A stretch of DNA of 64,000 nucleotides, from positions 1 to 64,000 of the IMG/VR virus record IMGVR_UViG_3300028886_000060. One strand, given 5' to 3'. The position numbers and the translations under genes are program-made. Source of the stretch: a virus. Lineage: Duplodnaviria > Caudoviricetes. Of this stretch, positions 21,677 to 23,601 are shown piece after piece (within the stretch, counting starts at the first letter, position 1; every line of letters begins with the position of its first letter). A model generated the notes under the pieces. It made no database searches, was not told the origin of the DNA, and worked only from the letters and a program-made list of their open reading frames with translations.

Positions 21677-21896
21677 AAAAGAGGAGGTCGGGGCCGAAGC
21701 CCCGAACATGACAAAGGAAGAATGTAACTGTTATGAATTATTACAAATGAAAGATCTCAATACCAGCAGACCAAAAAGATCGGAGATATGTAACCAATGG
21801 CAATCAATTACAAATAAGGACCGGATCAATTTGGGCGCATGGTCTGCTGATAAGAGTCTATGTTCAGAAGAACCTCTCCAAATCCATCTGAACATT
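21677..21896 (-). ncRNA. putative structured small RNA 1
   Basis: Late promoter AACT-N6-TAA at 21907-21895. Stems ATGTTCAGA/TCTGAACAT and CAGCAGACCA/TGGTCTGCTG, anti-SD+AUG segment at 21711-21724, cUUCGg hairpin at 21688-21705. Confidence 0.6.
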
Positions 21897-21916
21897 ATTT
21901 GCTAGTTATCAATATA

Positions 21917-22066
21917 AATAAAATATTTTCATTAGGGGACCGAAGTCCCCGTATGAAATATATTAAGAAAAGGAAGATGCTGTTGAATCATAATGCAGGG
22001 TATGATTCAACAAGAATGGAATCTGCTTTCAATATTCGATATAAATTCCCCTTTATATAGAATATT
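21917..22066 (-). ncRNA. putative structured small RNA 2
   Basis: Promoter CACT-N6-TAA at 22077-22065. 5' stem AATATTC/GAATATT, 12-bp stem TGTTGAATCATA/TATGATTCAACA, anti-SD+AUG segment at 21964-21979, cUUCGg hairpin at 21935-21950. Confidence 0.6.
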
Positions 22067-22084
22067 ATCGATAAGTGATTTCAA

Positions 22085-22362
22085 ATAATAAAAAATAAAA
22101 CCGGGACCGAAGTCCCGGCAGAGAGAGGTAAAAATGGGTACAACAAAACCCAAAACCCGTAAGCAAAAGGGGGAACAAATACTTACGGATTAAAAAATAG
22201 TGAAAGTCGCCGGGATAAACCCGGCAACACCACTATGTTTGAGGAATTGAGACATAGAACTTGAGACACAATATAAATTGTGATCCCATACTAACGTCGC
22301 ATATGGGATAATTTATTTACGACGCAGAATATTCGAGGGTGACTGGTCCTCATGTGAATATT
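22085..22362 (-). ncRNA. putative structured small RNA 3, possibly two products
   Basis: Promoter AACA-N6-TAA at 22373-22361. 5' stem AATATTC/GAATATT, several hairpins, internal terminator-like stem at 22197-22235, anti-SD+AUG segment at 22120-22136, cUUCGg terminator at 22101-22118 plus U tract. Confidence 0.6.
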
Positions 22363-22371
22363 AATCACATG

Positions 22372-23601
22372 TTATCTCGTCGGATTATTTAATCTTATTG
22401 ATGATAACAATTCTGCCTCGACTCTAGCTGCATCCTCATTATAATTATTTGGATTAGCCTGAGTTGTTGTAGGTTGTGCAAAGTTAGGTAATGAATAATC
22501 ATAACCTCCACTAATGTTAGAACCAACCTTCATACTCTTAAGGAAGTCTTGTGCATTACGTGTCATAACACTGTTGAGCATACCATCATTCTGCTGGTCA
22601 ACAAATCTAATGATATCAGTAGACTGAGGTTTACGTCCTCTTGTAAGATTGAAGAATTCTTCTCCCGCACCTTCCTTGGTCCAATCATAAAGAATCGGTT
22701 CATTATTATCACCAAGAACATTATTTCTGGCAAATCTATTACCGAACGGAATTGCGGAAGGATTATAAACAGTATTCTTATGACGTATAACAGTTGACAT
22801 CGGTGTATCATATCCTGCATTATGAGCAGCAAGCATACGCTGATATTCTTCAGCACCAGTTACATCATAATCAAGTGCCACAGGTTTATACGGCTGCTTC
22901 TTAATCTTCGGCTTCTCATCATCACGCTTATCTCTAAGGACTACATCGCCTGTGATGACACCCTTCAAGATTTCACGATCAGTAATCTGTGTCGAATGGT
23001 TAATATACAATTTAGGAATAGTACACCAAGAGAACTTGATTCTTCCTGCATTGAATTCTTTTAATGCTTCTTCATAAGTAAGCCATGGATAATCGCCGTC
23101 TCCATACTTACCTAACGAAACATCGATTGCTTCTTGGATTATCTTGAATGCATTAACATAATCCGTTTGATTATAATAACAATTTCGAATACCCTTTAAC
23201 TTTTCATAGATCTGTTTACGGGCTTCAGTATTACACAGCTGATCATTCGGAATGTTATATGCATCATTAGGATCAGGTCTTACGATGGAGACTGACATCT
23301 CTTCTCGTATCTTTGCCTTCTGTTCATCAGAAATTGTTAGTATGATGACATCATTTCTAGAAGCCTTACGACGATCATCTGAAATTTTCTTTTTCATTAT
23401 TTCATTATGCTGACGCATCGTCTCAGGATCTAGTTCTTCTTCGTCCTCAATACCGAACTCTTCTTTCTGACGTTCAGCCCATCTTAGTTTAACTTCCGCC
23501 AACATTGTATCATCAATCATTGGCGTAATACCATCCATCATCTGTTCAATGATTTTATCCAGTTCATCAACAGGATAGACGTATCTGATTTCATCTGACA
23601 T
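22372..23601 (-). CDS. hypothetical protein
   Basis: 409-aa ORF with SD AGGAGGT; early-type motif at 23631-23649. Confidence 0.8.
   Translation of the reverse strand: MSDEIRYVYPVDELDKIIEQMMDGITPMIDDTMLAEVKLRWAERQKEEFGIEDEEELDPETMRQHNEIMKKKISDDRRKASRNDVIILTISDEQKAKIREEMSVSIVRPDPNDAYNIPNDQLCNTEARKQIYEKLKGIRNCYYNQTDYVNAFKIIQEAIDVSLGKYGDGDYPWLTYEEALKEFNAGRIKFSWCTIPKLYINHSTQITDREILKGVITGDVVLRDKRDDEKPKIKKQPYKPVALDYDVTGAEEYQRMLAAHNAGYDTPMSTVIRHKNTVYNPSAIPFGNRFARNNVLGDNNEPILYDWTKEGAGEEFFNLTRGRKPQSTDIIRFVDQQNDGMLNSVMTRNAQDFLKSMKVGSNISGGYDYSLPNFAQPTTTQANPNNYNEDAARVEAELLSSIRLNNPTR

Follow-up and report, generated by a model that had tools for sequence, protein, structure and literature searches.

The locus and its predicted transcription units

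The window analysed here is a stretch of 64,000 nucleotides, the first 64 kb of the 113,944-bp IMG/VR record IMGVR_UViG_3300028886_000060 (Duplodnaviria; Caudoviricetes), which has an estimated completeness of 42% and is therefore ascribed to a jumbo phage. Besides a DNA polymerase and virion proteins, the phage encodes within the window a fragment of the beta subunit of a multisubunit RNA polymerase (RNAP) (phrog_2962, E = 4.9e-61). The subject of this report is the biggest open reading frame (ORF)-poor gap of this densely coded window, 21680-22373, which on the minus strand is made up of four short, structured, non-coding units. That the locus holds a conserved set of structured small RNAs, each with a promoter of its own, is well supported, and the units are very probably real functional RNAs: their promoters, folds, conservation and covariation, the accessibility of their C/U tracts and the absence of a coding signal are established in silico. 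The gap is flanked by two genes:

22372..23601, minus strand: gene of a 409-aa protein, upstream flank of the gap
21326..21622, minus strand: gene of a 98-aa protein, downstream flank of the gap

A first-pass annotation of the same DNA had already singled out an ORF-poor gap read on the minus strand, which proves to be the largest of its kind in the window, and had divided it into three units headed by late promoters of the form NACN-N6-TAA at 22373, 22077 and 21907. These three promoters are present, and an additional one is found at 22202, so that the gap holds four units and not three. The late promoter of phage AR9 has been described as AACA-(6N)-TA/G, with the last base as the transcription start site (TSS) (PMC5312081). 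All four sites in the gap fit [ACT]AC[AT]-N6-TAA, the full AACA occurring only at 22373, and their AC dinucleotides lie at 22372, 22201, 22076 and 21906, all on the minus strand and within 470 bp:

22361..22373, minus strand: unit 1a promoter, AACA-N6-TAA, predicted TSS the A at 22362; overlaps the 409-aa gene at its stop codon
22190..22202, minus strand: unit 1b (fourth) promoter, CACT-N6-TAA, predicted TSS 22191; lies inside the T-run of the unit 1a terminator
22065..22077, minus strand: unit 2 promoter, CACT-N6-TAA, predicted TSS 22066
21895..21907, minus strand: unit 3 promoter, AACT-N6-TAA, predicted TSS 21896

The RNAs predicted from these starts are the following:

22196..22362, minus strand: unit 1a RNA, about 157-167 nt, fold z-score -6.61
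22326-22318 with 22301-22293, minus strand: helix P2 of unit 1a; the P3 pseudoknot is formed by 22309-22302 with 22290-22283
22096..22191, minus strand: unit 1b RNA, about 92-96 nt, fold z-score -6.11
21930..22066, minus strand: unit 2 RNA, about 132-150 nt, fold z-score -4.56
21680..21896, minus strand: unit 3 RNA, about 209-217 nt, fold z-score -4.79

Each unit is more stable than its dinucleotide-shuffled counterparts, 0/200 shuffles reaching any of the four. The predicted 5′-ends read AAUAUUC, AAUCCGU, AAUAUUC and AAUGUUC, and each opens a 5′-terminal hairpin that includes the first nucleotides; such hairpins had been noted at the starts AAU(A/G)UUC, to which the fourth unit adds one opening with AAUCCGU. 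In unit 1a, the loop of the 5′-hairpin is a conserved (A)GUCA(G), and 3′ of P3 there follow a small hairpin, a C/U-rich linker (UUCCUC, 22246-22241) and the terminator hairpin 22228-22206. Unit 1b displays the loop UUCCCCCUUUU (22175-22165) on its 5′-hairpin, with a probability of being unpaired, P(unpaired), of 0.87; 3′ of a second hairpin comes the tract CAUUUUUACCUCUCUCU (22136-22120), which is unpaired in both the minimum free energy (MFE) and the centroid fold, and the terminator is a cUUCGg hairpin (22119-22100) followed by a T-run. Unit 2 contains a 5′-hairpin with the G-rich loop AAAGGGGAAU, a central hairpin with the loop ACCCUGCA, the tract CAUCUUCCUUUUCUUA at 21979-21964 and a cUUCGg hairpin (21950-21935) that sits atop an extended AU stem. 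Unit 3 comprises a 5′-hairpin opening with AAUGUUCAGA, a long irregular stem, the tract CAUUCUUCCUUUGU (21724-21711; P(unpaired) 0.97), a cUUCGg hairpin (21705-21688) and the tail ACCUCCUCUUUU. That these cUUCGg hairpins are special to three sites, as first proposed for the window, applies to the whole 113,944-bp record, in which cUUCGg-capped stems of at least 4 bp occur three times, all in the gap. Taken without a stem, the hexamer CTTCGG is frequent (28 copies in the window vs 9.8 expected). Sequence common to the units is limited to the 5′-heptamer, a 14-nt terminator core shared by units 1b and 2, and a 9-nt C/U piece shared by units 2 and 3.

The units match no Rfam family: in the window and in the loci of nine relatives no match reaches the gathering score, and the best sub-threshold scores concern unrelated families (SNORD115, 24.4 vs 39 bits; SorX, 16.5 vs 46.6). 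ARAGORN finds 0 genes for tRNA or tmRNA in the window. Tandem direct repeats of the kind present in type III toxin-antitoxin (ToxI-like) or CRISPR-like arrays are absent, the units sharing pieces of 7-14 nt. By prediction, each unit has the properties of an independent short transcript, namely its own promoter, its own terminator and no conserved ORF.

A late promoter motif that is avoided elsewhere in the genome

Strict AACA-N6-TAA occurs 3 times in the whole record, compared with 21 expected in the window alone. This rarity prompted a scan of spacer lengths with the pattern AC[AT]-Nk-TAA (k = 0-14), which in the 113,944-bp record yielded 19 sites at k = 6 and 66 at k = 7 versus 114-200 at k = 0-5 and 8-14; for k = 6, a Markov-1 model predicts 209 sites rather than the 19 observed. 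AC-N7-TAA is about 8-fold depleted in this genome at exactly this spacing. Four of the 19 surviving AC[AT]-N6-TAA sites fall in the gap, where 0.12 would be expected (Poisson P about 7e-6). The spacing-specific depletion is seen in 5/5 relatives' records (G001-G005), which contain 13, 17, 16, 26 and 27 copies of ACW-N6-TAAT compared with 134, 80, 99, 206 and 302 copies of the reversed pattern and 77, 65, 62, 124 and 140 copies in a spacer-9 control. In contrast, AR9 itself does not avoid the motif (274 sites at spacer 6 vs 235-372 at other spacers).

The sites that survive tend to lie between genes. Although called genes make up 94% of the record, 21/80 sites of the form AC-N7-TA[AG] are intergenic, and TAA-type sites are located 27-94 nt upstream of 11 gene starts, including those of a 2323-aa protein and of a head-tail/virion protein gene. 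Depletion and placement together agree with the initial view that the gap is divided into small non-coding units transcribed independently of each other, with promoters that can be assigned to the AR9 late type. For this clade, the short late core AC-N7-TAA may suffice on its own for initiation, and it is proposed that stray copies are purged for this reason. Avoidance of a bipartite restriction site was considered as a cause of the 4-10-fold depletion and fits poorly, since the surviving sites lie upstream of genes. Promoters of the sigma-70 type gave no signal (86 found vs 90.6 expected). A promoter so sharply defined by motif avoidance makes late transcription units predictable throughout the clade.

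Conservation and covariation in related phages

Loci of relatives were collected from IMG/VR, from metagenome contigs and from contigs of metagenome-assembled genomes (MAGs) by way of homologues of the 409-aa protein with 76% to 29% protein identity. All relatives down to 41% identity carry one to four units, and 29 units are found in 10 phages when the window phage is included; the nine unit-bearing relatives are represented by the loci L003, L010, L007 (= L002), L004 (= L011), L012, L013, L005, L006 and L014. The array directly follows the 409-aa gene in 9/10 phages, with one gene inserted between them in L012. Beside the two most distant homologues of this gene, in L008 and L009, an array is absent. 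The units of the relatives repeat the layout of those in the window: an [ACT]AC[AT]-N6-TAAT promoter (usually TAATATT[CT]) is followed by a structured body, which leads via a pyrimidine tract to a GC hairpin. A UUCG loop is kept in some homologous terminators (unit 2 of L003, unit 3 of L007) and replaced in others. The fourth promoter is retained at the same place in L003 and L010, the two closest relatives with a unit 1b, and is not present in L004 and L012, in which the first unit is one long RNA; the 17-mer of the unit 1a promoter recurs in L002/L007 in front of unit 3 of that phage. A search of IMG/VR with a DNA pattern for unit 2 matched 9 loci, of which 1 was real and already part of the set of relatives.

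The check by covariation in syntenic loci, which had been suggested at the outset, revealed a conserved architecture and covarying stems in units 1a and 2. In P2 of unit 1a (7 sequences), 96.8% of the cells are paired and 7/9 pairs are changed on both sides, a result reached by 0/500 shuffles and compared with 16-57% pairing in slid controls. As MAFFT had misaligned P3, this helix was assessed without an alignment by pairing the P2 loop with the sequence 3′ of P2. The mean duplex energy of matched loop and flank is -8.47 kcal/mol vs -4.53 kcal/mol for mismatched phage pairs; a phage's own partner ranks first in 5/7 sequences, and 3/5000 permutations reach the observed total. For the 5′-domain of unit 1a, the own partner ranks first in 6/7 sequences (9/5000 permutations). 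Unit 2, with 5 homologues, contains 27 pairs that are 90.6% paired, 12 of them changed on both sides (0/500 shuffles; slid controls 38-50%). Covariation thus gives indicative support to the stems of unit 1a, including an H-type pseudoknot, and to those of unit 2, the figures being indicative and not formal probabilities because the sequence sets are small and related. Across phages, every unit type makes up a genuine family in sequence as well as in structure. The first impression that architecture rather than sequence is conserved therefore describes the units within one phage correctly; it does not extend to comparisons between phages, where the units form sequence families.

At its 3′-side the array is delimited by a second type of promoter. 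The early promoter of AR9 has been described as AAATATATATTAT-(6N)-G (PMC5312081), and a closely similar element follows unit 3:

21636..21655, minus strand: AR9-type early promoter ATATAGATATTAT-N6-G, with an 11/13 match to the AR9 early consensus

This element marks the end of the array and is predicted to serve the genes that follow it, which encode proteins of 98 aa and 131 aa. In most relatives, too, the array has an AR9 early promoter on its 3′-side that is perfect, as in L006 and L010, or nearly so; late units followed by an early promoter place the array at a late/early boundary. In L004, L006, L007 and L010, a conserved element, TTTTTCTATGCT, is located about 50-80 nt upstream of the early promoter, with a variant in L013. 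In L006, the single RNA unit is separated from the early promoter by a stretch that contains about 30 nt of (GA)n microsatellite (4900-4935). The early motif ATATA[TCG]ATATTAT-N6-G is found about 12 times in the record; further sites are:

7021, 13819, 41939 and 55913, minus strand: early motif, within the window
64368, minus strand: early motif, beyond the window
64460 and 72391, plus strand: early motif, beyond the window

Pyrimidine tracts and the search for targets

A pyrimidine run of at least 9 nt within 40 nt 5′ of the terminator is present in 19/29 units, a count that includes two mis-picked terminators (unit 3 of L003 and unit 4 of L010), vs 4.6% of random genomic 40-mers. The tracts have a P(unpaired) of 0.75 vs 0.39 for the remaining RNA and are the more accessible part in 27/29 units. 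With the Shine-Dalgarno (SD) consensus AAAGGAGG they pair at a mean of -6.2 kcal/mol vs -3.9 kcal/mol for random 40-mers. The units hence display an accessible C-rich motif with moderate complementarity to SD sequences. In unit 2, the tract UCUUCCUUUUC is kept in 6/7 homologues, and in L007 and L004 the homologue of unit 3 exposes ACCUCCUUUC in a hairpin loop. The central loop of unit 2 in L013 (2760-2790) reads CAUUCCUCCUCCGU, a second anti-SD-like element, at a position where other phages have ACCUGCA.

In the first-pass annotation, each terminator was said to be preceded by an unpaired CAU plus a pyrimidine tract, together the reverse complement of an SD, a spacer and an AUG. The quoted tract sequences are correct, and folding predicts them to be unpaired. 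The CAU, however, is not conserved in the unit 2 homologues, which show AAUC, GAUC, UAUC or CAUC at its position. Moreover, the complements of SD and AUG are virtually adjacent in units 2 and 3, so that a natural SD-AUG could not pair with both. The anti-AUG half of the proposal is not supported.

Five tracts and loops of the window were compared by energy scans with 103 phage start regions, using 40 shuffled tracts for each. Duplexes with start regions (-9.7 to -12.5 kcal/mol) are more stable than those with internal coding windows (-6.4 to -8.8 kcal/mol). The suggested check against the 5′ untranslated regions (UTRs) of the phage produced one target beyond the level of shuffles and none for the other four tracts and loops:

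28230..28260, plus strand: candidate target of unit 1b, complementary to its tract; SD and start codon of gene 28248..28577

With this start region the tract of unit 1b would form a duplex of -25.4 kcal/mol, with a 13-nt perfect core and additional pairing of AUGGGU, which 0/40 shuffles attain.

Possible functions of the array

The favoured explanation is that the units are late, trans-acting RNAs that pair with ribosome-binding sites. Four small RNA genes would each possess a late promoter, presumably read by the multisubunit RNAP of the phage, and read-through of the first terminator would result in three RNAs instead of four. Each transcript would start at the A of TAA with a protective 5′-terminal hairpin and end at the GC-rich hairpin, and the single-stranded C/U tract beside the terminator, in some units together with C-rich loops, is complementary to the purine-rich SDs of the phage and, presumably, of its host. 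Late in infection, these RNAs would pair in trans with the ribosome-binding sites of host or phage mRNAs, which would block initiation or change mRNA stability in the manner of the C-rich-seed small RNAs (sRNAs) of Firmicutes. Transcription of the units, its timing, action in trans and SD pairing are steps that we infer. As the exposed C/U tract is the feature common to all units and phages, SD pairing is the best mechanistic reading of the array; as the mechanism of the units it is suggested by analogy and should be doubted somewhat more than believed, and the explanation as a whole is advanced tentatively, its chances lying a little short of even.

Several observations weigh against SD pairing. 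Pyrimidine-only tracts are expected to appear unpaired in a G-poor RNA, and their fit to the SD consensus is modest, with 6/29 units at or below -8 kcal/mol and none reaching -10 kcal/mol. For 4/5 window tracts and loops, the best start-region duplex is reached by 23, 30, 9 and 14 of the 40 shuffles, and the longest perfect complementarity of the units to the phage genome, 12-14 nt, equals that of shuffled units. Gene 28248, the candidate target of unit 1b, has no homologue in the three relatives' records or the syntenic DNA examined, and no counterpart of the pairing was found for the L003 unit, which makes this pair a single-genome candidate. The conserved tract UCUUCCUUUU of unit 2 can pair with the conserved 5′-loop AAAGGGGAA, as it does in the MFE fold of L002, and may thus have in part a structural or self-masking role. 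The mRNAs of the phage itself use the same SDs, with AAGGA in 60/103 and AGGAG in 52/103 start regions (counts that are inflated, as starts were picked partly by their SD), and indiscriminate pairing would thus hit the phage as well. Unit 1a carries an elaborate conserved pseudoknot for which simple antisense RNAs have no need. The RNA-library contigs that match 18000-27000 (from the runs X1, X2 and X4, and from X3, whose RNA label is guessed) are sparse, at a depth of 1-4, cover genes and gap alike, give neither ends nor strand and speak neither for nor against expression.

The elaborate folds, taken together with a conservation of the tracts at the level of composition, keep alive, as a serious rival, a role in protein binding, which we consider rather unlikely. 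The units would then serve as sponge, scaffold or component of a ribonucleoprotein (RNP), titrating or assembling a protein late in infection; host S1, Hfq, cold-shock or KH-type proteins, or a phage protein, possibly that of 409 aa, are envisaged as partners, and the 5′-hairpin with its GUCAG loop, the pseudoknot, the ACCCUGCA loop and the pyrimidine tracts as recognition sites. Conserved loops and a covarying pseudoknot exceed the needs of an antisense seed, the tracts are not conserved as one exact anti-SD sequence, and there are several distinct RNAs, each with one or two tracts. The position of the array right after the 409-aa gene in nine of the ten phages could likewise be understood in this way, the encoded protein matching no Pfam or PHROG family. 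However, this linkage is biased, because the relatives were found via the 409-aa protein, and the distant homologues in L008 and L009 lack a neighbouring array. The AlphaFold model of the protein is poor (predicted local distance difference test, pLDDT, 61; predicted template modelling score, pTM, 0.27), and its comparison with the Atlas returned nothing meaningful (top score 0.75). In addition, repeated GGA-type motifs as in CsrB/RsmZ are missing, the loops and linkers of the array being C/U-rich with a single G-rich loop in unit 2.

A purely cis-acting boundary, in which stacked terminators and promoters insulate a late operon from early genes and the RNAs are by-products or the 3′ UTR of the 409-aa mRNA, would account for the position of the array, in the window as in relatives, precisely where a late-side gene gives way to an AR9-type early promoter. 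Given the overlap of the unit 1a promoter with the end of the 409-aa gene, a read-through RNA would carry unit 1a as its 3′ UTR. One terminator would nevertheless be enough for this purpose, yet 470 bp hold four copies of a promoter motif that is otherwise strongly avoided; the bodies of the units are conserved with compensatory changes, which is not expected of by-products, and phages with anything from 1 to 4 units keep the layout of each. This possibility is accordingly regarded as quite improbable. Still less credence is given to the production of small proteins, either from plus-strand SD-AUG combinations, of which the C/U tracts would be the complement, or from small minus-strand ORFs, a possibility that can be considered most improbable. 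ORFs of 25-142 aa do exist in the gap on both strands, and the plus strand at 21683-21716 reads AAAAGAGGAGGT, a hairpin and ATG. This SD, a perfect one, is split from the ATG by the terminator of unit 3 and is not conserved, and it is therefore explained as a by-product of the tail ACCUCCUCUUUU. When 8 gap ORFs were compared with nine relatives by tblastn, 0/8 had a significant homologue, the best match (E = 9e-5 over 28 aa) falling on a spot conserved at the nucleotide level, whereas the flanking gene gave E values of 0 to 3e-94 in 9/9 relatives. The CAU/ATG is not conserved, substitutions compensate stems and are not codon-like, and it is the minus strand that carries all four promoters as well as the T-runs of the terminators and the covarying structures. 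No ORF of the gap is conserved on either strand.

A variant of the SD-directed explanation, improbable in our estimation, would have the array act as a bank of mimics of the 16S rRNA 3′-tail. Several RNAs, abundant late in infection, would each expose an anti-SD-like C/U tract next to a stable tetraloop hairpin and jointly titrate either SDs or else a factor, or a defence nuclease, whose substrate is the anti-SD tail. The ACCUCCUUUC loop in the unit 3 homologues and the GC hairpin plus ACCUCCUCUUUU at the 3′-end of unit 3 in the window could be examples of such mimicry. If true, tail mimics would give the phage a global control of the mRNAs on which host ribosomes initiate late in infection, an RNA-based take-over of translation of a kind not known from any phage.

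Relation to known RNAs and phages

In C-rich-seed sRNAs, unpaired C-rich loops or linkers pair with G-rich SD regions. RsaE/RoxS, the Rsa sRNAs with UCCC motifs and the hairpins of RNAIII exemplify Firmicutes RNAs that direct C-rich seeds to SDs (PMC2790875, PMC4409812, PMC6158497). The units of the array resemble these RNAs in being short, in their own predicted promoter and hairpin terminator and in the display of C-rich motifs. Unlike RNAs of the RsaE/RoxS type, with which they have no sequence or covariance-model similarity and no common Rfam match, they form a tandem bank of unrelated RNAs under phage-RNAP promoters in a virulent-type jumbo phage; their tracts are C/U-mixed (CUUCCUUUU) rather than UCCC, and one member contains a conserved pseudoknot.

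The phage shares with the PBS1-like phage AR9 both late and early promoter motifs and a putative split multisubunit RNAP, of which a beta-subunit fragment was identified, and differs from it in that the first A and the fourth base of the late motif are relaxed to [ACT]AC[ATGC]. The main text of the AR9 transcriptome paper makes no mention of non-coding or small RNA (PMC5312081), and a by-eye look at a few ORF-free gaps with late motifs in the AR9 record disclosed no comparable array. Two ORF-free stretches of AR9, 207,968-208,270 on the plus strand (L038) and 181,650-181,850 on the minus strand (L037), lie behind AACA-N6-TA motifs and, on inspection by eye, could represent late transcripts without coding function, introns or long leaders. 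Among virulent phages, for few of which sRNA predictions exist according to the authors of the phiKZ study, phiKZ was predicted to encode one 75-nt sRNA, which a northern blot did not confirm (PMC8244752). The array is similar to the sRNAs of phiKZ and other virulent phages in being non-coding, encoded by a lytic phage and thought to be late; a conserved array backed by covariation, as found here, is not described in that report.

GOLLD and ROOL are single, ornate phage-associated non-coding RNAs of about 500-800 nt from gut and rumen metagenomes. The present RNAs are, like them, structured phage RNAs from anaerobic, Firmicutes-type communities, but are four in number and 95-215 nt long, each with its own promoter and terminator, and reach the threshold of no Rfam family.

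Full-text searches of the literature retrieved no description of such an array, which does not prove its absence. Hardly any regulatory RNA is known from virulent phages, jumbo phages above all, and the locus provides family-wide, covariation-backed RNA genes with predicted ends in a clade of uncultured gut or rumen jumbo phages. If the C/U tracts pair with ribosome-binding sites, the phage would steer translation by RNA and not by protein; if they bind a protein, the units would be a new set of phage RNP components. In either case they supply new RNA families for curation, one of them with an H-type pseudoknot.

Further observations on the phage and its relatives

No DNA or protein match to AR9 or to any other INPHARED phage was found for four queries, namely the gap, the two flanking genes and an 875-aa protein, while 183 homologues of the 409-aa protein are present among metagenome-derived proteins. 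The contig of one relative belongs to a Clostridia MAG, which is weak evidence as to the host. One RNA-library contig of the run X1 matches the window at 21916-22100 only, that is, at unit 2 with its promoter, and is flanked on both sides by 255 nt of unlike sequence; a copy of unit 2 apparently also exists in another genomic neighbourhood of the same sample, where a related phage is probably its carrier. Within the window, an identical 23-nt string, ATCACACGACCGTAATTTGAAAC, occurs twice on the plus strand, at 29645 and 30002 (357 bp apart), opposite the HNH-endonuclease gene 28621..30414, and this repetition suggests an internal duplication in that gene.

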